This document shows positions 25,828-36,715 of a stretch of 37,287 nucleotides of DNA, piece by piece; within the stretch, counting starts at the first letter, position 1, and each line of letters opens with the position of its first letter. The notes beneath the pieces were generated by a model. That model was not told the DNA's origin. It worked only from the letters and a program-made list of their open reading frames with translations, and did no database searches. Both the position numbers and the translations under genes were made by a program. The DNA is from Pseudobdellovibrionaceae bacterium (lineage in GTDB: Bacteria; Bdellovibrionota; Bdellovibrionia; Bdellovibrionales; Bdellovibrionaceae), in the NCBI GenBank assembly GCA_039810425.1, contig JBDHWW010000029.1, positions 1 through 37,287 on the forward strand, in the 5' to 3' direction.

Positions 25828-26235
25828 ATGAGCATGATGGATTCCATTCAAGAAAAAGCCGCCAGTGTTTTTGGCTCTTCAAACACCCAACTCACGCAAG
25901 CCGTCTCAAAAATCATTGATGAATGTGGCGGGATGGATGGGTTGATTAAAAAATTTCAGGATAAGGGACTCGGAGAGACCGTCCAATCTTGGATTGGCAA
26001 TACACCGAATAAATCAGTGACGGCGGACCAAATCACGAATGTGCTGGGCCCGGCGTTGTTACAAAAAGTCGCTAGTAGCGTGGGGATGGCACCGGAAACA
26101 CTCAGCCAACAGGTGGCGACTTACCTCCCACTCTTGGTGGATAAGCTATCACCTGATGGCACGGTCCCTCACGAAGGCTGGTGGGCAAAGAGCTTGGATA
26201 AAGCCAAAGAACTCTTTGGCATGAACAAGCACTAG
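25828..26235 (+). CDS. yidB: YidB (DUF937) family protein
   Basis: AAGGAG RBS; GG.DGLI.KF...GLG..VQSWIG..PN, LP.LVDKLSPDG. Confidence 0.88.
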   Translation: MSMMDSIQEKAASVFGSSNTQLTQAVSKIIDECGGMDGLIKKFQDKGLGETVQSWIGNTPNKSVTADQITNVLGPALLQKVASSVGMAPETLSQQVATYLPLLVDKLSPDGTVPHEGWWAKSLDKAKELFGMNKH

Positions 26236-26735
26236 TAGCCGTAGTACATACCTGGGACGCCTGCGCGGATGCCACCACCGATGTAGATACCACCGCTGAT
26301 ACCGACGCCTGCACCACCGTAGTAGCCCGTTGGATATCCGTAGTAACCACCACCGTAGTAGCCCGTCGGGTAGTTTCTGTACTGATAGTAGTAAGAGTTA
26401 TAAGAGCCGCCGTTATTGTAATAACCACCGTTATTATAGTAGCCACCGTTGCATCCGCCGTTGTAGCCCGTGTTGTAACCACCGTTGCATCCTGTGTTAT
26501 AGACGGTATTGTAAGCCGCTGGAATGCACTGATTATTGTACAGGCCGGTATTCGCCGGGCAGTTTGCTTGAGGTAAGCAGCCATATTGTTGGGTGTAGAC
26601 CTGACCCGCAACGCAGGTGTTTGCAGCAGGGACTGTTGCAACTGCCGGGTCGGAATTACCGCCGCCATTGTCTTTGGCACAAGCACCAAGGACAAGGAAC
26701 ACAGCAAAAACCACGGATTGAATCACGTTCTTCAT
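26232..26735 (-). CDS. Lipoprotein with Cys-rich segment and Gly/Tyr/Asn low-complexity tail
   Basis: GGAGG RBS before ATG 26735; lipobox LGAC; CVAGQVYTQQYGCLPQANC...QC; YNTG/CNGG/YYNNGG/GYYGG repeats. Confidence 0.8.
   Translation of the reverse strand: MKNVIQSVVFAVFLVLGACAKDNGGGNSDPAVATVPAANTCVAGQVYTQQYGCLPQANCPANTGLYNNQCIPAAYNTVYNTGCNGGYNTGYNGGCNGGYYNNGGYYNNGGSYNSYYYQYRNYPTGYYGGGYYGYPTGYYGGAGVGISGGIYIGGGIRAGVPGMYYGY
26310..26510 (-). repeat. Imperfect coding tandem repeats (GGYY/NGG/YPTGYYGG)
   Basis: CACCACCGTAGTAGCCCGT occurs twice; repeated CCACCGTT/GTTGCATCC units. Confidence 0.7.
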
Positions 26736-26775
26736 AGATGCCTCCACGTTCAAAATTTGGACTCGCCCCCAAGAG

Positions 26776-26792
26776 TGCATTTGGTGTGCCTA
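26776..26792 (-). promoter_or_regulatory. sigma54-type promoter for the Gly/Tyr lipoprotein
   Basis: Minus strand TAGGCACACCAAATGCA = GG-N10-GC, about 40 nt upstream of the ATG. Confidence 0.65.
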
Positions 26793-26935: not shown

Positions 26936-28243
26936 ATGAAGCTGCGTCTTGGGATTCTCATAGTCATTTGCTTGCTTCCATTTTTGGCGCACGCCAAAGA
27001 CGGCTGGGACCTCACCACGGACGCAAAAATAGAAAGTGTCTATTGGCCCCAAGACTATGGCGAAGACACCAACAACACTCTCAATCGCCTCTCGTTGGTC
27101 CCGGTTTTAACCGGGAGCCACGGCCGGGCTTATCGGTTCTTTTTTAAACCGGCATTTCAATGGGACCCACAGAATAAATCCAATGAAGAAAAGATCTTTG
27201 CCGACGCCGGCGAAGCTTATTTCAAACTGCGCGGTGAAACAACCAGCGTCCAAGTCGGGAGCAACATTCTTCATTGGGGCGTGACGGACGGTTATAACCC
27301 GATGGATATCGTGAATATGCGCCAATATTACGACCCGCTTCGCGCGGTGAAGCTCGGCATGGGCTCGGTGCTTTTCTCGCACAGTTCAGAGAAATCCGAT
27401 CAAGAGCTGATCTACATTCCTAAAAACCGTGAATCAATTTTGCCGGGAATTCAGAGTCGCTGGCTGCCACGCAAAGTCTATATTCCACGTACCGTGGATA
27501 ACAACGTCGCCCTCATTCTTCCAGAGAATCTTCGTTATACTTACGATAGCCGCGTTGCGCTTGATCAGGCGGCGGATAACAACATTGGACTTCGCCTGCA
27601 ATGGCACTTAGGCGCCATTGACCTGAGCTGGACCGGCTATGACGGCATCACTCAGTTTCCCATCGTGCAGCCGGAAATCACCGGCAACGTGATTCAAGTG
27701 TCGCCCACTATAATTATTCAAACAGATCCCGACGTGAAGCTTCACCTGAAATTCTACCGCCAACGCGCCAGTGGATTTTCCTGGGTCAGTAGCCATTGGA
27801 ACTTTCTTTTAAAGTACGCCACGAACTATTCGCAAAGCTATGGCGATGACCCCCTTTTACCAGGCTGGACTCATGAAAGCATCGTCGGCCTGGAAAGAAA
27901 CTTCAATATCGGCTCCGAAGGGCTTCTCGTCGCGCTCGTTCAGTATTCTTTTATCAATACCGAAAAGGAAAACGCCTCGAATATGTCTGTGACAGAAATC
28001 TTCCGCCGCGCTTGGATGGCCGGCGGCCGCTTCTCGTGGGGCGACAATTGGACTGTGACGGCTCTTGGCCTTTACGATACTCTCCATCACGGCAACTTTC
28101 AGCAGTACTCTGTGGCACGCCGGCTTTTCGACACCTGGACCCTTCAAGCAAGTGCTGAAATCATCTCTGGCAACGCGGCGACACCTCTCGGCGTGTATAA
28201 CGAGAACGACAACTACCGACTCTCCCTGAGCCGTAGTTGGTGA
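26936..28243 (+). CDS. Outer-membrane beta-barrel of the type that accompanies MMPL/LolA-like genes (DUF1302-like)
   Basis: Signal peptide AHA; EAYF...VQVG.N.LHWG.TD.YNP.D.VN motif; amphipathic strands; C-terminal beta-signal YRLSLSRSW. Confidence 0.75.
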   Translation: MKLRLGILIVICLLPFLAHAKDGWDLTTDAKIESVYWPQDYGEDTNNTLNRLSLVPVLTGSHGRAYRFFFKPAFQWDPQNKSNEEKIFADAGEAYFKLRGETTSVQVGSNILHWGVTDGYNPMDIVNMRQYYDPLRAVKLGMGSVLFSHSSEKSDQELIYIPKNRESILPGIQSRWLPRKVYIPRTVDNNVALILPENLRYTYDSRVALDQAADNNIGLRLQWHLGAIDLSWTGYDGITQFPIVQPEITGNVIQVSPTIIIQTDPDVKLHLKFYRQRASGFSWVSSHWNFLLKYATNYSQSYGDDPLLPGWTHESIVGLERNFNIGSEGLLVALVQYSFINTEKENASNMSVTEIFRRAWMAGGRFSWGDNWTVTALGLYDTLHHGNFQQYSVARRLFDTWTLQASAEIISGNAATPLGVYNENDNYRLSLSRSW

Positions 28244-28246
28244 AAA

Positions 28247-29773
28247 CTACTTCGGAGCCGGAGTGGCATGGACCGGTTGTTTTAAAGACAGCACCAGGTC
28301 TCCGCCATTTGTGCTCTGCACTTTCTGAACGAGCAAAGACACGCCGCTGGCTACCGGAATGACTGGCAACGTATAATGGAGCGTCGCCCCCTGCACCGCA
28401 CTTTGTATGCGCTTGCGAATGGCGGACGCCGCAAAGGTTTTTGACGGCGCATACTTCGCCACATAGCCGGGGTCCCACTCTGCTTGCAGACCGAGCCCGA
28501 CGCTTGTGAACTTCGCGGAGAACTTGCCATTATCAAGTGACAGATTCACCTTGCTCGTCATTGGCACTGAAAAATTCATAAACGGCACATAACCTCCGGA
28601 ACGGGGCGCGGACATTTTCGCATAAAGTGGCACGTTCACGTCATAGCTCAGGCGCTTTCCCGTCAGCCTGATGTTCTCGGGCGAATAGAGTTCAAATAAG
28701 AATTTTGCATCTTTTGGATAGCTCATCAAATCGCGCCAAACGAAGAACTGCGTAAAACGTGATGTCATCAGCGTTTGAAACCCTGGAATATCCCGGGAAT
28801 AAACTTTCTCTGCCCACGTGTTCCCGGCGTAAGCTTGCTTTGCCACGGCGATAATGAAGCTTTCAGGCACGCGGATCGTCGCTGATTGGTTTTCGCCGAA
28901 CGCGCCCTTTGACAGGCGCAAACTCACTTCACCGTGAGACTTTAGGCGCGTAAACTCCACCCGAAAAATTCCACGCGCGACCGCCATTTTTTTGGTGCCC
29001 GTAAAATCCGTGACACTCATTGAAACTTTAATGTCTGGACGCGCCGTAATGAGGCTGCGGGGCTTGGAAAGGTTTAGGGAGTATGAGTTGACATAGTTAC
29101 GTACGTATCGCATCAAGGTCGTTTTTTGACTTGTGACAATAGTAGCGTCTCCGGTGCGCTGGCGGATTTCATTGCGAACGACATCTTCAAATCCCTCTGC
29201 GCCCGAACATTTCATCGTGGTGATCTCCCACGCGTCAGAAGTCCAAGTAAGGTTTGCATCATCCACTTGCGCCCGTAAAATTGCGCCGTCAAAAACCGGG
29301 CTGAGTTGCATTGTCAGAGTTGCTTGACCCGGTTTTAAGTGAAGATTCACTCCTTCACATTTTGCCTGCACCCGGAAGCGTCCGACCACTCCGCCGACCT
29401 CGCGTTGAATGTATTGATCAATGGCAACTGCCTGAATGAAAAGTCCGGCATCAAGGCCGCGCGATGCCAGCGCAACTGTTTCGCCGCCATCGCCGATATT
29501 TGGCTTTTGCAATCGCGTCTTGAGATCGAGTTTTAATCCGGTCATGAACACCTTCACATCAGGCGTATCCAGCGTTTGATCCGGGAGCTCCCAGTTCAAC
29601 TTGAATTCTTGTTTCTGCAAGGTGTCCCACTCTTGCTCTACGAGATCTTGTTGAAAAGACCTCGGAAGCAGCATCTCAAATTCTGTTTGGACAACGGCGT
29701 TTGCGAACACAACACGGCTCAGAAAAAAAATGACGAGTGCTAAGAACAAAAATCTGAAACGACGGATCTGCAT
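28247..29773 (-). CDS. Hypothetical secreted protein, possibly BPI/TULIP-like two-lobed lipid-binding fold
   Basis: GGGGAA RBS before ATG 29773; signal peptide VFA; two halves each with helix, long beta-strand run and closing helix; fold call is inference only. Confidence 0.6.
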   Translation of the reverse strand: MQIRRFRFLFLALVIFFLSRVVFANAVVQTEFEMLLPRSFQQDLVEQEWDTLQKQEFKLNWELPDQTLDTPDVKVFMTGLKLDLKTRLQKPNIGDGGETVALASRGLDAGLFIQAVAIDQYIQREVGGVVGRFRVQAKCEGVNLHLKPGQATLTMQLSPVFDGAILRAQVDDANLTWTSDAWEITTMKCSGAEGFEDVVRNEIRQRTGDATIVTSQKTTLMRYVRNYVNSYSLNLSKPRSLITARPDIKVSMSVTDFTGTKKMAVARGIFRVEFTRLKSHGEVSLRLSKGAFGENQSATIRVPESFIIAVAKQAYAGNTWAEKVYSRDIPGFQTLMTSRFTQFFVWRDLMSYPKDAKFLFELYSPENIRLTGKRLSYDVNVPLYAKMSAPRSGGYVPFMNFSVPMTSKVNLSLDNGKFSAKFTSVGLGLQAEWDPGYVAKYAPSKTFAASAIRKRIQSAVQGATLHYTLPVIPVASGVSLLVQKVQSTNGGDLVLSLKQPVHATPAPK

Positions 29774-29808: not shown

Positions 29809-29862
29809 ACACTCTACTTAGAAAATAAGAACTAAATATCGAACTCTTACAAAGGAATCTCA

Positions 29863-32800
29863 GTGACCTATCCATCATTGGCTAAGGATAAACTTCCAGT
29901 TTTTGTTAAAAGAGTCTGCGTCGGTATTTTAATTTTGATGAGCGCACTGACAGTATTAAGCGTTTTGACTTTCTCACGCTTGCAAACAAAGTATTCCTTG
30001 AGCCAGTTTCTGCCCAAACAAAATCCGCTGTTGGCGCTAGATGCAAAAACAAAAAAAACTTTTCAGATATCAGATTCGCAGCCGTTCATTGCGACCTTAC
30101 AACTTCTTGACAAACAACACACTTGGCTTGAGGTGGATAAAATTCAGTTACTTAAACAAACAACTGAGGAGATGGGCCGGATTGACGGCGTGAAAAGCGC
30201 CCTCAGCATCGCGACTGTTGAAGGGGCGGTGAATAACAAAGAAGGCCTTAGTGTGGGGCCCTTGCTCGAATCTCTTCCCACCCAGAGTTGGCTGAGCCAG
30301 GTGATGAAGAATGCTTTACTGACACCCGCTTTGGTGGCTAAAGACGCAAAGACGGTTTCTATCGTCGTTTATCTGAAGGACTCCGGCTCTGCGGATTTGC
30401 AGACGATGAAGTCTGAAATCGAAACGATTGCACAAAAGAGGTTGCCGTTTTCAAAAGTCGAGATCGGCGGAACTCCGGCGGTGCAATCCGATATCAGCGT
30501 GCTGCTGCAAAGCGAGGTCCGCAACTTCGTCGGCTTGGGGTTTTTGGCGTGCCTGACCGTGCTCACTATTGTTTTTGCGAATTTCACGCCGGTGATTATT
30601 TCTTTTATCATCACTGTTGTCGCGAATCTGATGATCCTCGCTGCGATGGCGATGTTGGGGTATTCGTTTACGGTGCTTTCAACGACGATTCCGATCCTTG
30701 CGACGATTACGGTGATGTCACTGTGTATTCACTCAATGCTCCGCTTGGTGGAAGAAACTAAGACCGCACCGCCGAGGCCTCATCACCGTCTAGTCATTAG
30801 AACGATGCGCGTACTGCTCGGCCCGAATTTCTTAGCGGCCCTCACGCCGATGATCGGTTTCTTAAGTCTCGCGACCACGAAGGTGCCACTCATCCGCGAC
30901 TTCGGCTTGACGGTCGCGATGGCGATCTCTATTTGCTGGATTGTTTCTTACCTCCTTCTCGTGCCGTTGCTGATTTTGCTGCCAAAACCCCAGGCGCGGA
31001 AATGGGCGTGGGCCAAGGCGCGCTGGAGTCTTTACTTTTTCCAGAAAAGCGGCGTTGTGGCTTTGCTGATCATTGGCGTGTCCGTGGCTTTGGCCCTCAA
31101 AGGACAAACGCTGTCATGGACGGCCCGCCTGTTTGATGACCTGCCGAGCGATCATCAGGTGCGCAACTCCACCGAGCTGATTGACCACGAATTGGGCGGG
31201 ATGATTCCGATCGATATAGAGCTTCGCGGGACGAAAGATATCTGGAGCGATCCGAAGCTGCTTTCGCAACTTGACAGTTTGATTCGCCGTTATCGTAAGC
31301 ACCTTGGCGTCGGCAGCGCCGTGGGGCTGCCTGATCTGCTGGCCGCCTCGAACTTAACCCAAACACGCTTGCCGGCGAGCAAAGCCTCCGCCGCAGAGAT
31401 TTTGTTTCTTTACTCCCTATCAGACCAAAGCCCTTTAAAAAACTACCTCAACACGGATTCTTCGCGCACGCGGATCGCGATTCGCGCGCAGGATCTGCCA
31501 GCAAACGAGCTCCATCGCCTTGTTGAGTTCATGACCCGCGATGCGCGTAAAACTTTTCCGGGCTTTATCGTCAATGCCTCGGGCATGGGCTCAACGATTC
31601 ACACCTTGAATAACCAGCTCTCGCGTGAATTGATCTTTGGCTTCTGGCAGTCGATGTTTGTGATCTTTGTGATACTGATTTTCGTGTTTAGATCGGCGCG
31701 CTGGTCGCTTGTGGCCTGTATTCCGAACCTGGTACCGCCGGCGGTGCTGCTCGGATTCCTTGCGATTTCACAAACTCCGATCAAACCGAGTATCGCGATT
31801 ATCTTCTCGATCGCGCTGGGTTTGGCGTTTAACAATACCGTCTATTTCCTGGCGCGCTTGCGTAGTATTCAAAAGAGCAGCTCTATTAACCGTTTGGACG
31901 TTGAAAAGGCGCTATGGCTCGAGGGGAATCCTTGTCTCATATCAAGTTTAACCCTGCTTGCGGGGTTTTCCGTATTTCTTGTCTCGTATTTCGCAATGAA
32001 TAGAACTTTTGGGTTTTACATGGTGTTGTCCATGGTGGCGGGTCTGGTGGGGGACCTCATTCTTCTGCCGACACTTTTGAAGAGCTGCCCCTGGTTGTTA
32101 AAAACTCCGAATTGGAGTCCAAGAACAAAGGAGAAATTCATGGCCAGCCTGTCCGCCGTCAGCCTCACCTTCTTGCTTTTTGGCGTCGCTACTCCGGCCC
32201 ACGCGGCGATTCCGCCGATGGATGTCCAAAAGATCGCCGCTGAAATTTCAAGCCGCATGAGTGCCAAAGATGAGGAGTTCGACGCCACCATGAAAATCAT
32301 CGAAGCCGACAAGAGTTCAAAAGAGCGCGGCATGAAAATCATGCGCCTTAGCCCAAGTAAAAAAGAACACTACGTCATGGTCCACATGCAAACTCCGAAA
32401 GACCTCAAAGGCACTTCTCTGCTGGCGACTTACAAAGACGGCAAGGAAGAGAAATGGCTGTACTTGCCTTCAAGCAAGCAGACCCGTCGCTTGGCTTCAA
32501 CCTCCAGCGAGTCAAACTCGATCTTGGGGTCTGAACTGAACACGGAAGATTTCAATATCAATACCGAAACAAGCGCCAAGAATACTCTTAAGAACGAGGT
32601 GAAGGTCCATGGCCAAACCCTTTACGTGGTGGAAAGCGATGTCAACCAAGCATCAGGCCACTACTCGAAGGTGGTCAGCTATATTGCGCAGAATGAATTT
32701 CTGCCCAATAAGTCAGAGGCCTATGACAAGCAAGGCAAGTTACTTAAAATCATTGAATTCAGCGACTACAAAAAAGTCGGCGACGGCAAGTGGCGCGCGG

Positions 32801-32922
32801 GAAAAATTAAAATCCGCAATATACAAAACAACCGCGCCACCGAAATCACCCTTTCAAACATCAAAGTGGATCAGAATCTAAAACCCTCAGAGTTCACGCC
32901 GAAAGCTTTGAGCGAAGAATAA
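29863..32922 (+). CDS. MMPL/RND family transporter fused to a C-terminal LolA-like (outer-membrane lipoprotein-sorting type) domain
   Basis: AAAGGA RBS, GTG start; two RND repeats (TM, periplasmic loop, TM bundle: IGGTP, GFLSL....PLIRDFG, IPNLVP, DLILLP); C-terminal P.DLKGT.LL, WLYLPS.K.TRR, GSEL..ED, YSK, YDKQGKLLK, W....I.I.N......T motifs. Confidence 0.88.
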   Translation: MTYPSLAKDKLPVFVKRVCVGILILMSALTVLSVLTFSRLQTKYSLSQFLPKQNPLLALDAKTKKTFQISDSQPFIATLQLLDKQHTWLEVDKIQLLKQTTEEMGRIDGVKSALSIATVEGAVNNKEGLSVGPLLESLPTQSWLSQVMKNALLTPALVAKDAKTVSIVVYLKDSGSADLQTMKSEIETIAQKRLPFSKVEIGGTPAVQSDISVLLQSEVRNFVGLGFLACLTVLTIVFANFTPVIISFIITVVANLMILAAMAMLGYSFTVLSTTIPILATITVMSLCIHSMLRLVEETKTAPPRPHHRLVIRTMRVLLGPNFLAALTPMIGFLSLATTKVPLIRDFGLTVAMAISICWIVSYLLLVPLLILLPKPQARKWAWAKARWSLYFFQKSGVVALLIIGVSVALALKGQTLSWTARLFDDLPSDHQVRNSTELIDHELGGMIPIDIELRGTKDIWSDPKLLSQLDSLIRRYRKHLGVGSAVGLPDLLAASNLTQTRLPASKASAAEILFLYSLSDQSPLKNYLNTDSSRTRIAIRAQDLPANELHRLVEFMTRDARKTFPGFIVNASGMGSTIHTLNNQLSRELIFGFWQSMFVIFVILIFVFRSARWSLVACIPNLVPPAVLLGFLAISQTPIKPSIAIIFSIALGLAFNNTVYFLARLRSIQKSSSINRLDVEKALWLEGNPCLISSLTLLAGFSVFLVSYFAMNRTFGFYMVLSMVAGLVGDLILLPTLLKSCPWLLKTPNWSPRTKEKFMASLSAVSLTFLLFGVATPAHAAIPPMDVQKIAAEISSRMSAKDEEFDATMKIIEADKSSKERGMKIMRLSPSKKEHYVMVHMQTPKDLKGTSLLATYKDGKEEKWLYLPSSKQTRRLASTSSESNSILGSELNTEDFNINTETSAKNTLKNEVKVHGQTLYVVESDVNQASGHYSKVVSYIAQNEFLPNKSEAYDKQGKLLKIIEFSDYKKVGDGKWRAGKIKIRNIQNNRATEITLSNIKVDQNLKPSEFTPKALSEE
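32140..32922 (+). CDS. Possible internally initiated, in-frame LolA-like periplasmic protein
   Basis: AAGGAG (32128-32133) 6 nt before an in-frame ATG, followed by signal-peptide-like MASLSAVSLTFLLFGVATPAHA. Confidence 0.5.
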   Translation: MASLSAVSLTFLLFGVATPAHAAIPPMDVQKIAAEISSRMSAKDEEFDATMKIIEADKSSKERGMKIMRLSPSKKEHYVMVHMQTPKDLKGTSLLATYKDGKEEKWLYLPSSKQTRRLASTSSESNSILGSELNTEDFNINTETSAKNTLKNEVKVHGQTLYVVESDVNQASGHYSKVVSYIAQNEFLPNKSEAYDKQGKLLKIIEFSDYKKVGDGKWRAGKIKIRNIQNNRATEITLSNIKVDQNLKPSEFTPKALSEE

Positions 32923-32962: not shown

Positions 32963-33460
32963 CTACCCTCCGGCTTTCTTCAAAGCTTCGGCGATGACGA
33001 TTTCGCGCTCAATGCGATAGAACAGCACGCGCTCTTCAAGGCCGTCAGAGGCAACGCCGTCGGCTTCAGAAAAGAAGTCGCGCAGACGCTCGATCTTTTT
33101 CTCAATCGTCACGCGTGTAGATTCGCGGCCTTCGGTTCTTCCTTTAGCGAAATTGAATACCAATTTATAGCGAATACCCGCGGATGGAGGCTTGGACACT
33201 TCGGGTGGCAAGAAACCATCCACCCCCTTGATGAACTCGGTCTCTAAATAACCCGTGTCTTGGTTTTCAACGGCGATGGGATACTTGATCGAAGTATGCG
33301 CCGCCCGCCAAACGCTGTCGTAGGCCGCGAAGTATACTTTCTGATGTATAGATTGCTTCAGAATTGCGTTCTCCGGATCCTGCTGACGGTCGAAAAGACT
33401 GCAGCCGGATCCGAGGAGCACCAATACCGAACTAGAAATCCAAAGAAGTGTGCGTGACAT
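32963..33460 (-). CDS. Lipoprotein, BamC-like helix-grip domain candidate
   Basis: Lipobox LGSGC; YDSVWRAA......I...NQDTGYLETE pattern; overlaps the end of the upstream gene. Confidence 0.7.
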   Translation of the reverse strand: MSRTLLWISSSVLVLLGSGCSLFDRQQDPENAILKQSIHQKVYFAAYDSVWRAAHTSIKYPIAVENQDTGYLETEFIKGVDGFLPPEVSKPPSAGIRYKLVFNFAKGRTEGRESTRVTIEKKIERLRDFFSEADGVASDGLEERVLFYRIEREIVIAEALKKAGG

Positions 33461-34907
33461 GAGTAGCATTATTGATCATCGCCGGACCGAGATCAACCGT
33501 AGAAACATTCAGACTGCCAAGGAAATTGACCTCCCAGTGCTTCCGGCCTGGCAAGTGATTGCCGCCCGGCCACGTCGGCAAAGACAGGGTCTCAGGCCAT
33601 TGTGGAGCGTACATTTCCCAGTAGCTGCTGTTCACCAACACACTCGCCCCGCCTTGAGCCGTCTGTAGAACTTGAGATACCACCGCATAAGTCGCAATCG
33701 CGTTTACGCCAGGGATCGAGTTCATCTTTTGCAACAAAAGATCGCCGTTTGCCGCCATTGCTGGATCCGCCATGATCGGCAAGAACTGCGGAGTCACGCC
33801 ATTTCCAACGGGTACCAACACCGCGCTCAAACGATCTGTACCCGGCCCACTTGCATCCAAGTCTTTCGATTTTTTCAAAACAGACAAAACAGAACCTGTG
33901 CTATCTAAAGTCGCAAGGCTTTGTTTTTGGCCTGACTTCACAACTTTCACGTCCGTGGGAACCATATATTCGTTAAAGTGAGCCACCCCGACTGCGATCA
34001 TGGTTTCATCGCCCGCGATTGCCGGGGCTGTTATGTTGACCTTGTTTTTGAAGTCCATATCGGTCACGGACAAATCCATCTGAGTGCTGGATTTTGTGAT
34101 GTTCAAATCTTTCAAACCACCACCAGAAATCGTGAAGTCATTCACGAGTTCATACATCGGAGCATTGTTACGAAGCTTGTCCACCACTTGCTTGAACGGA
34201 AAGCGGCCACGGGCAGCGAAAACTTTTTGCACCCCGCCCTCTGCGAAGTAGGTGCGATACTTAGGTTTATCGATCGTGACCGGCAAAATGTAAGATTCTT
34301 TTTGCTTCGGGAACGTGAGGTTGCTTGGAACCTCAGCATCTTGACCCAGGATCGAGATGACATCGAATTGCGGGCTGATCACGGCATCGATATTAAACGC
34401 CAAGAAATCCTTGCGAGTCATCGCCGGGATCACCAAACCGAAATCGATGATACCATCGCGGTCTTGAATCTTATGGCCCGTCGTCGTGCCACTCACTTCG
34501 AACTGGGTGGTATTCGTTTGGCTCCTTTTATGCAAACGGTACGTGCGATCGCCCGGAGCTTGGGCAAAGTAAGTGGCACGAACATACCCCGGGGCTTCGA
34601 TCGTCACAGCTTGAGCGTCAGTCCAAGCTGTGGGCAGGTCGATGTGGCCCACCGCGTCCGCTGTCATATAATTGCCAGCAAATGGAGTCCCTTCCTCCAT
34701 ACCGATGAGGATTTGGGCGCCCGCCAAGGGCTGGAGATCTTCGCCCACGATGTTGATGCCTGTTACGGCCGTCGGCGAGAAAATTCCCCAGAGTTTTCCT
34801 GAAGGAGTGGTTGGCTTGTCCTGAGAACAGCCAGCTAGGTTAAATGTGGCAATGACGCCGATAATGCTCAAAGCCCAATGATTTCGAAGACGCGTCCGTA
34901 GATGCAT
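33432..34907 (-). CDS. Large hypothetical lipoprotein with N-terminal carboxypeptidase-regulatory-like beta domain
   Basis: GGGGGA RBS; lipobox LAGC; QPLAGAQI.IG...TADAVG...VTIEAPGY pattern. Confidence 0.7.
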   Translation of the reverse strand: MHLRTRLRNHWALSIIGVIATFNLAGCSQDKPTTPSGKLWGIFSPTAVTGINIVGEDLQPLAGAQILIGMEEGTPFAGNYMTADAVGHIDLPTAWTDAQAVTIEAPGYVRATYFAQAPGDRTYRLHKRSQTNTTQFEVSGTTTGHKIQDRDGIIDFGLVIPAMTRKDFLAFNIDAVISPQFDVISILGQDAEVPSNLTFPKQKESYILPVTIDKPKYRTYFAEGGVQKVFAARGRFPFKQVVDKLRNNAPMYELVNDFTISGGGLKDLNITKSSTQMDLSVTDMDFKNKVNITAPAIAGDETMIAVGVAHFNEYMVPTDVKVVKSGQKQSLATLDSTGSVLSVLKKSKDLDASGPGTDRLSAVLVPVGNGVTPQFLPIMADPAMAANGDLLLQKMNSIPGVNAIATYAVVSQVLQTAQGGASVLVNSSYWEMYAPQWPETLSLPTWPGGNHLPGRKHWEVNFLGSLNVSTVDLGPAMINNATHVTHTSLDF

Positions 34908-35386: not shown

Positions 35387-36715
35387 ATGGCGAAGAAAAA
35401 AGTAAGAAAACAAATCAAGAAGCAAAACAAAAAAACGAAATCCAAACCGTCAGCGAAAAAAATCAAGACGAAGATTTCCCAGAAAATTTCCATCACCACA
35501 ACAATTGAAACAAATCTTCCCAGTGTTGGTTCTTACTATATTCGCCCCAAACAAAAGGGAAAAAGTTTTAGTCTTTACTTGAAGAAATATGAAAATGGAA
35601 AGCCCGTCAATCCTCACCAAAAAATTGATGAAGCGATTTATTACCGCTTTGGTTTATCTGCGGAAATGACGGCGTTAGAAGCCAAGACGAAGTTAAAGGA
35701 TTTTAGAAAACTGAATAAAGCAACTCGTGAAGAAGTGGCTCGGCAAGACCGCACATTCAAGCGATACGCCCGAAGTAGAACCATCAATCAAACACTTTTT
35801 CCGCAAGAGATGGTCAATATCTTTGAACAAAAAATCAGGAATGAAAATATTGGAACTGATAAGCACCTCAATAAGAAACTTTATGTCTTTGCGACTATAC
35901 AAGAAATTATAAACTCTTTGAAACTGGTTCCCGAAACCTACGCCGAAAATTCTAAAATTATTTTTAAATACTTCATTGATAATCAATACTCACTCAACTA
36001 CTCGCAAAAAATGATTTCCATGATGAACGAATGGGGAAAATTTGCGACCGCCAAAGGGAGTGGATATTTTAAAATCATTCCACAGCCCAAAGGTAATTTC
36101 CGTGAGAAGATAAGCAAAGGCTCGCAAACAAAAACGGGGGTTCGCAAAGAAGCCCTCCCTATGACCCAAAATCTTTTAGACCAAATCGTTAGCATTGCCC
36201 CCAATCATGGCTTTACTGCCAATGAAATCAATTTCTTCAAAGCGACCTTTTATTTAGGTCTTCGCCCCGAAGAATTGATGAAAACCTCCAACGGAGGAAA
36301 GCACTATTCCAAATACACGGATTTGAAGTCAGGTCTTGATGTGGTGATGGTCTATCAGGAGAAACTTCAAGGCGTTCCAGAAAATAAACGAACCAAGCAC
36401 ATCCCCATAAAATGGGATGAACAAAAAAATGCCGTGAGTATTATTGAAAACAGAAATTTTCATAAGCCAAATTATAAAAAAATTAAGTCATTAGCCCAAG
36501 CCTTAAATTGTAATGCCGATGGCAAAGCGTTGGGTCTTTATAGTGGTCGTAAGGGCTTCACGAACTGGTGCTTTGATAAAGGCGAAACTGATTTTGTGGG
36601 CGTGGCGAGTTGGCTTGGACATTTAGATACGGCAACCACATACGCAATCTACTTAGACCGAAGTAAAGTTTTGATTGGCAACAGTGGAACACCACCAAAG
36701 GCTTCGGGGATTTAG
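35387..36715 (+). CDS. Tyrosine recombinase/integrase with Lys-rich N-terminal extension
   Basis: AAAGGA RBS; GLRPEEL (Arg I), KHIP, LYSGRK (box II with Tyr at the His position), WLGH, TYAIY (catalytic Tyr candidate). Confidence 0.88.
   Translation: MAKKKVRKQIKKQNKKTKSKPSAKKIKTKISQKISITTTIETNLPSVGSYYIRPKQKGKSFSLYLKKYENGKPVNPHQKIDEAIYYRFGLSAEMTALEAKTKLKDFRKLNKATREEVARQDRTFKRYARSRTINQTLFPQEMVNIFEQKIRNENIGTDKHLNKKLYVFATIQEIINSLKLVPETYAENSKIIFKYFIDNQYSLNYSQKMISMMNEWGKFATAKGSGYFKIIPQPKGNFREKISKGSQTKTGVRKEALPMTQNLLDQIVSIAPNHGFTANEINFFKATFYLGLRPEELMKTSNGGKHYSKYTDLKSGLDVVMVYQEKLQGVPENKRTKHIPIKWDEQKNAVSIIENRNFHKPNYKKIKSLAQALNCNADGKALGLYSGRKGFTNWCFDKGETDFVGVASWLGHLDTATTYAIYLDRSKVLIGNSGTPPKASGI

Follow-up and report, generated by a model that had tools for sequence, protein, structure and literature searches.

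Introduction

Fusion of an MMPL-type permease of the resistance-nodulation-division (RND) family to a LolA-like domain is, as an architecture, already published: TOL_3187 of Thalassolituus oleivorans combines the two domains and is induced 42-fold by the n-C28 alkane (PMC6304351). Here we analyse a gene of identical domain architecture in a 37,287-nucleotide (nt) stretch of Pseudobdellovibrionaceae DNA (contig JBDHWW010000029.1, hereafter the window), in which a single open reading frame (ORF) at 29863..32922 on the + strand joins an RND permease, a signal-peptide-like linker and a LolA-like carrier domain. The fusion is conserved, retains the ribosome binding site, start codon and signal peptidase motif of the carrier in frame, and probably gives rise to two products. 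TOL_3187 likewise lies beside a predicted porin gene (TOL_3188); the accessible text on it treats the fusion as one protein and carries no mention of an internal start or of cleavage (PMC6304351).

Related cassettes are built from separate genes. AmeABCD of Castellaniella defragrans consists of an HAE3 RND permease, a LolA-superfamily DUF1329 protein, a COG4447 protein and an outer-membrane protein (PMC6394551). AmeABCD handles hydrophobic compounds, and our locus is similar in joining an HAE3-type permease, a LolA-superfamily periplasmic protein and a predicted outer-membrane barrel in one cassette with putative hydrophobic cargo. In the available description, AmeABCD differs in that its components are unfused, that AmeB belongs to the longer DUF1329 type (451 amino acids, aa) and that its third gene encodes COG4447, whereas here a candidate LBP/BPI-like protein is encoded on the opposite strand (PMC6394551). 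Bacteroidetes operons are described as separate-gene cassettes as well (PMC10434189). Our literature search, which took in few subscription journals and no supplements, turned up no paper that describes internal initiation or processing of MMPL-LolA fusions and no study of the Bdellovibrio bacteriovorus HD100 orthologue CAE79842.1.

Several routes lead from one gene to more than one protein. Escherichia coli CopA/CopA(Z) yields a transporter and a soluble chaperone by -1 frameshifting, the chaperone being a cytoplasmic N-terminal product; the junction studied here shows no frameshift signature. The Bradyrhizobium FbcH cytochrome b-c1 precursor is cleaved by signal peptidase I into two membrane proteins, and we know of no internal-start route for it. 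In Staphylococcus aureus LtaS, SpsB cleaves a polytopic protein beyond the final membrane segment, so that the outer domain is released; this cleavage ends activity, and the accessible text mentions no second, internal-start route (PMC10865820). In-frame internal starts that yield a C-terminal proteoform are described for Salmonella SpaO-L/S, Synechococcus CcmM58/35 and CheA-L/S, and that of SpaO sets subunit stoichiometry (PMC13515050). Those short forms are cytoplasmic as described, whereas the short form considered here would gain a signal peptide and enter another compartment, and its start, unlike theirs, is nested within a polytopic transporter gene (PMC13515050).

An open reading frame with a candidate second start at the permease-carrier junction

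The reading frame runs without an internal stop from GTG 29863 to TAA 32922, encodes 1019 aa and has full-length fused homologues, some of them named Bdellovibrio proteins. Residues 1-746 (29863..32100, +) form an MMPL/HAE3-type RND permease with a two-repeat membrane fold and two periplasmic domains. As the first-pass annotation of the window had noted, the frame stays open beyond the last RND helix, continuing past ...GDLILLPTLLKSCPWLL at the end of transmembrane segment (TM) 12 near nt 32100. The DNA that follows reads ACA AAG GAG AAA TTC ATG GCC and contains an internal Shine-Dalgarno (SD) element, AAAGGAG (32127..32133, +), which in frame encodes Lys756 (AAG) and Glu757 (GAG). An in-frame ATG, Met760 (32140..32142, +), lies 6 nt past the SD. 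The AAGGAG-N6-ATG reported earlier at 32128-32142 was found exactly there, with AAGGAG at 32128-32133 and ATG at 32140-32142. The 5' start of the full-length gene is AAAGGA followed by GTG (29851..29865, +), with a predicted SD pairing energy of -5.8 compared with -8.9 for the internal element.

Met760 starts the segment MASLSAVSLTFLLFGVATPAHA/A, a predicted 22-aa Sec signal peptide (32140..32205, +) that ends in Pro-Ala-His-Ala. The AxA-type signal peptidase I motif claimed for this position is therefore present as AHA/A, a putative cleavage site of the -3/-1 kind; the -3/-1 rule itself is known (PMC9360617). The predicted mature LolA-like periplasmic carrier (32206..32919, +; PF17131) has 238 aa. 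An AlphaFold model of the full-length chain (predicted local distance difference test, pLDDT, 79.5; predicted template-modelling score, pTM, 0.63) shows the RND fold, a helix at residues 753-774 and the LolA-like sheet, with low pLDDT at residues 775-783.

Conservation and predicted strength of the internal start motif

Junctions were compared in 47 loci from the two nearest genera (g1 and g10) and two metagenome contigs. Forty-five of these are fused, L065 is split, and L135 is a second, permease-only copy in genome G091. The pattern [K/R]-E-x-x-[M/V] occurs at 44 of the 45 fused junctions, and the ribosome binding site that had been noticed at a single locus is kept, together with its start, in the same proportion (44/45). 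The first SD codon is AAG in 43 of these 44 loci and CGG in one, the second GAG in 43 and GAA in one, the start codon ATG in 43 and GTG in one, and the 6-nt spacing is constant in 44/44. In L004, where Val replaces Met, the codon is GTG, itself able to serve as a start. Over the whole gene, Lys is encoded by AAG in 788 of 2706 cases and Glu by GAG in 571 of 1970 (29%).

Because related loci are not independent, columns were compared within one alignment, so that the control columns share both alignment and tree with the SD codons. In single-codon fixation, Lys756 ranks first and Glu757 second of 424 conserved columns, each with a minority codon; the next-best Lys and Glu columns are G-ending in 27/44, and the median top-codon share over columns is 0.51. 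The codon preceding the SD varies among nine forms. On the alignment, a protein-level need for basic residues cannot explain the fixation of the SD codons, and nucleotide-level selection on the internal SD and start is strongly supported. Synonymous constraint is raised over codons 720-760, with means of 0.64-0.65 compared with 0.05-0.38 in other segments; the exception, 0.48 at codons 760-779, comes from 3 columns only. The g10 loci, including L072, have a second synonymously constrained motif, GAT TTG ATT CTT ... TTG AAA AGT, at orthologue codons 730-741, which is 50-80 nt upstream of the internal start and does not occur in the genus of the window.

The 3' tail of the 16S ribosomal RNA of the source genome, GGATCACCTCCTTT, is complementary to the internal SD hexamer. 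Six-frame ORFs of at least 300 codons in that genome contain 10,028 in-frame internal ATGs; six of these have AAGGAG 4-9 nt upstream, and of those six only Met760 precedes a signal-peptide-like segment. Pairing energies of -8.8 kcal/mol or lower are found at 1.2% of 7,370 in-frame ATG/GTG/TTG codons of the orthologue ORFs; the Met760 site has -8.9. In all 16 loci with enough flanking sequence, the internal SD outpairs the best 5' start (medians -8.9 versus -5.7 kcal/mol). The 59 loci of other families comprise 49 fused and 10 split ones; a start with SD pairing of -7 or lower is present at 23 of the 49 fused junctions, compared with 63 of 765 control windows, and an [AVST]xA motif at 46/49.

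Initiation at Met760 is, on these sequence comparisons, likely. The first-pass annotation had offered internal initiation as a source of free periplasmic carrier in excess of the transporter; the initiation and the free carrier gain from the synonymous-site conservation and from the enrichment in other families, while the excess has one argument, the stronger predicted SD pairing in 16/16 loci. To our knowledge, internal starts have nearly always been detected by ribosome profiling (Ribo-seq) in a few model bacteria. Here the candidate start is legible from synonymous sites, it lies within a transporter gene, and its short product would reach a different compartment.

Further candidates were examined. 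A programmed frameshift was rejected: the first stop lies 3-43 codons off in the +1 frame and 0-62 in the -1 frame, and the pre-SD codon takes its nine forms. An antisense ORF of 108 aa (32016-32342) was not treated as a gene because, across the 44 loci, the longest open frame antisense to the junction can be as short as 52 or as long as 148 codons. A consensus scan for an internal promoter gave 4 sites versus 2.4 expected, and none of them lies directly before the internal ATG. The share of C-ending codons is higher in the carrier part in g1 (+0.24), g10 (+0.07), g3 (+0.04) and the other groups (+0.06), thus in all groups with or without the start, so codon bias is uninformative on carrier expression. 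RNA contigs of L072 from runs X16 and X17 stop short of the internal ATG by 139 and 133 nt, and the deeper contigs are carrier-side; both runs come from one study and contigs cannot reveal transcript starts or levels, and these data were not used as evidence.

Two probable products and the possible fate of the long chain

In the reading that we favour, ribosomes at the weak 5' GTG would make the 1019-aa chain and those at Met760 a 260-aa pre-protein. The latter would be exported through Sec and trimmed by signal peptidase I to the free 238-aa carrier, which would probably outnumber the permease. In the long chain, the signal-like segment would be a 13th membrane segment, crossing the membrane once more, and would probably also be cut at AHA/A to give an identical carrier; internal initiation and cleavage of the long chain are not mutually exclusive. 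The free carrier would then shuttle lipid or other hydrophobic cargo, in either direction, between the permease and the DUF1302-like outer-membrane barrel encoded nearby. What is observed is the fusion, its motifs, their conservation and the cassette; initiation at Met760, cleavage of the long chain, carrier excess, shuttling and cargo are the steps that we infer. If so, many proteins annotated as MMPL-LolA fusions would in fact be two or three proteoforms, and the carrier of an uncharacterised envelope-spanning lipid pathway would act as a free shuttle.

That signal peptidase I cleaves the long chain, the second proposal of the first-pass annotation, seems plausible, with the balance tipped slightly in its favour. 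Ala(-1) is present in 45/45 fused loci of the two near genera (Pro in 36/45) and in 18 of 21 non-g3 loci from genera mostly lacking the internal start. AxA is found in 83 of the 93 fused representatives at 50% identity, and Met in only 45 of these. In the model, about 6 residues separate Ala781 from the first helix of the carrier, a tether that would be too short for spanning the periplasm. Cleavage of the long chain is thus probable: where the start is missing, a carrier is still required, the motif is retained and the tether amounts to only a few residues.

Several observations weigh against this two-product reading. The loci compared are kin, and one fused locus of the near genera, L082, has no internal start. 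Outside these genera, GGAG plus ATG is present in only 4/55 fused loci; an SD-backed start is found in 0/29 loci of genus g3 (best -2.2), 10 of which have no start codon at the junction at all. In addition, no anchor could be placed in 4 further loci, and 3 loci are split. Predicted accessibility does not favour the SD region over the 5' start, the median unpaired value being 0.40 at both. In 44/44 loci the short product has no Lys or Arg among its first 6 residues, which is unusual for a Sec signal; the stand-alone L065 carrier, beginning MTVLPA, likewise has no early basic residues. For the cleavage step, composition shuffling gave a modest excess of AxA (36/45 versus a mean of 28.0, maximum 37; 21/25 versus 17.4) and was not significant in g3 (20/28 versus a mean of 18.8). 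The hydrophobicity of the segment, 1.85, is inside the range of real TMs (1.57-2.62), so the segment could remain as an anchor.

This last point leads to the alternative that survives best, in which free carrier comes from the internal start but no cleavage of the full-length chain takes place: the former signal peptide would serve as TM13 and tether one carrier to each permease, so that both forms coexist. All of the internal-start evidence applies to it equally, and the short product would by itself fully account for the conservation of Ala(-1) in the near genera. The segment, as hydrophobic as several of the TMs, is modelled as the helix 753-774, and a tethered carrier would supply a purpose for the fusion. 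Such an anchor is at odds with the retention of Ala(-1) in the 18/21 loci of lineages mostly without the internal start, and with AxA outlasting Met (83 of 93 against 45) among the fused representatives. The mean column identity of the segment is also low, 0.40-0.49 (0.40 at its lowest) compared with 0.91-0.95 for TM9-12. We therefore consider an uncut long chain unlikely.

A second alternative dispenses with internal initiation. Signal peptidase I would simply cut a polyprotein, and conservation of the SD-like hexamer would reflect some different function of the RNA, for example pausing of ribosomes ahead of the final membrane segment or RNA processing. The raised synonymous constraint is indeed wider than the SD, covering codons 720-760 and the GAT TTG ATT CTT motif of g10; whole genera do without the internal start, and the short signal has no basic n-region. 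A pause, however, needs neither a start codon nor a fixed spacing, and yet ATG or GTG follows exactly 6 nt on in 44/44 loci. Moreover, L065 is split through an ATGA stop overlap, and there the identical AAGGAG-N6-ATG serves as the real start of the carrier. Frameshifting is not indicated either, as no +1 or -1 stop and no slippery codon is conserved. This alternative appears improbable, and we retain, as moderately likely, the reading with both initiation at Met760 and cleavage.

Distribution of the fusion and its split forms

Matches were found in 105/182 genomes of the family and 112/401 genomes of the phylum. Among 144 representatives at 50% identity, 93 carry the fusion and 40 stop after the permease, with identity down to about 25%; judged by these matches, the fusion spans Bdellovibrionota. 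It occurs in the predatory B. bacteriovorus HD100 (CAE79842.1, junction KKEKVMAT) and in a complete chromosome, L067 (NZ_CP178621.1). In L072, the orthologous gene is covered by unbroken, indel-free contigs from RNA runs X1 and X9.

A recent stop-codon loss, the last proposal of the first-pass annotation, or an assembly error, with the motifs as relics of a separate gene, can be set aside, even though split forms are known (10/59 loci of other families, L065, L133, L139 and L144) and a single base divides the ATGA overlap from fusion, because the SD codons are fixed amid otherwise saturated synonymous sites (median top-codon share 0.51), and because the fusion is widespread across the phylum, including HD100, the L067 chromosome, 93/144 representatives and the intact RNA contigs.

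In a FastTree phylogeny of 141 permease sequences (root on P0113, clades not formally tested), L065/P0077 and the RND-only P0079 fall separately within the fused clade, a pattern indicative of two re-splits. The L065 permease belongs to a protein cluster of 4 members from several sources. Genome G037 is split with an ATGA overlap. In G020 (L133/L134) and G043 (L139/L140), the permease gene is on another contig than the barrel-carrier cluster, so the RND and LolA-like matches are separated and the carrier is encoded apart in these genomes. By these gene structures, three states coexist: split, fused with the start and fused without it. These related lineages are natural controls, and the orthologue CAE79842.1 sits in the genetically tractable HD100.

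More tentatively, and with somewhat less than even confidence, the loci may represent a phylum-wide transporter class in which one ORF would serve two compartments by two routes: it would yield an inner-membrane permease without the usual proton-relay acids, and, both from a nested stronger start and by signal peptidase cleavage of the polyprotein, a lipid shuttle free in the periplasm. Lineages switching between split, fused-with-start and fused-without-start states would thereby tune the ratio of carrier to permease.

The permease and carrier domains

The permease matches Pfam MMPL (PF03176) with 84.9 bits (cut-off 20.5). Foldseek matches include MmpL4/5 (E ~1e-22, TM-score by target 0.77-0.79), MmpL3, NPC1-family proteins and HpnN. 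Scored on the whole protein, the NCBIfam families HAE3, HpnN and ActII all stay below their cut-offs (TIGR00921, 132 versus 352; TIGR03480, 52.5 versus 752; TIGR00833, 53 versus 875). Proton-driven RND permeases have acidic proton-relay residues in TM4 and TM10. In the 4/4 g1 loci, there is no Asp or Glu in the core of TM4 (ATITVMSLCIH; TM4 at about residues 272-295) or of TM10 (GLAFNNTVY; about residues 642-664). The g10 loci have Asp or Glu in TM4 in 39/40 cases and none in TM10; in P0110-P0114 and P0116, which are distant relatives, TM10 contains Asp (DD or D). The permease may not be proton-coupled in the usual manner, as suggested by these residues.

The carrier domain matches Pfam LolA_like (PF17131) at residues 836-1017 with 148.1 bits (cut-off 30); Pfam matched only LolA_like and DUF1329, not the canonical LolA family. 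It is homologous to the solved structures PDB 3BK5 (E 2e-26), 9TP6 (E 8e-24), 4Z48 and 3BUU. The second of these, Porphyromonas gingivalis LolA3, is described as a stand-alone protein with its own signal peptide and a hydrophobic groove, and it binds LolB very weakly (PMC13103446). It thus differs from the carrier domain here in being unfused, and its very weak LolB binding means that lipoprotein sorting is not an established function of the LolA_like family, as far as this description goes (PMC13103446). Two more stand-alone LolA_like genes are present in the source genome, L146 (G000:C13:55772-56296) and L147 (G000:C39:24369-24866), each beside genes that look ABC-transporter-like by eye from their N-termini.

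Neighbouring genes

The syntenic partner of the fusion is a predicted outer-membrane beta-barrel of DUF1302-like type (26936..28243, +), with an Atlas score of 0.98 to porin/DUF1302 clusters and no match in Pfam or NCBIfam. It was found in 5/5 genomes searched, adjoining the RND/LolA genes in L065, L067, L068 and L144 and the LolA gene in L134. Complex prediction for carrier and barrel gave a score of 0.59 versus 0.00 for the best control, with at least 89% contact agreement between runs and a partner pLDDT of at least 76; the mark used is reached by 116/157 solved and 2/215 mismatched pairs, scores of 0.60 or below comprising 18 solved pairs and both mismatches. The modelling thus weakly supports a carrier-barrel complex. 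A lipoprotein-like ORF of 182 aa with Gly/Tyr/Asn-rich repeats (26232-26780, -) precedes the barrel gene and also lies beside it in L068.

Between barrel and fusion, a divergently transcribed gene conserved in the cassette encodes a 508-aa exported protein (28247..29773, -), syntenic in L064, L065, L067, L068, L134, L140 and L144. Its start is likely 29773 and not 29878, judged by homologue lengths. In Atlas, the protein scores 0.91 against a cluster in which 57% of the members have PF02886, with recognition below the mark, and its single-sequence fold has a pLDDT of 34. An LBP/BPI/CETP-like, lipid-binding nature is a lead only, and the protein is possibly a second lipid carrier.

Downstream, two conserved lipoprotein-like genes (32963-33469 and 33432-34907, -) are convergent on the fusion; they match nothing in Pfam or NCBIfam and are syntenic in L064, L065, L067 and L068. 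Near the contig end lies a 442-aa ORF (35387-36715, +) with no Pfam match, the C-terminal part of which appears by eye to be tyrosine recombinase-like.

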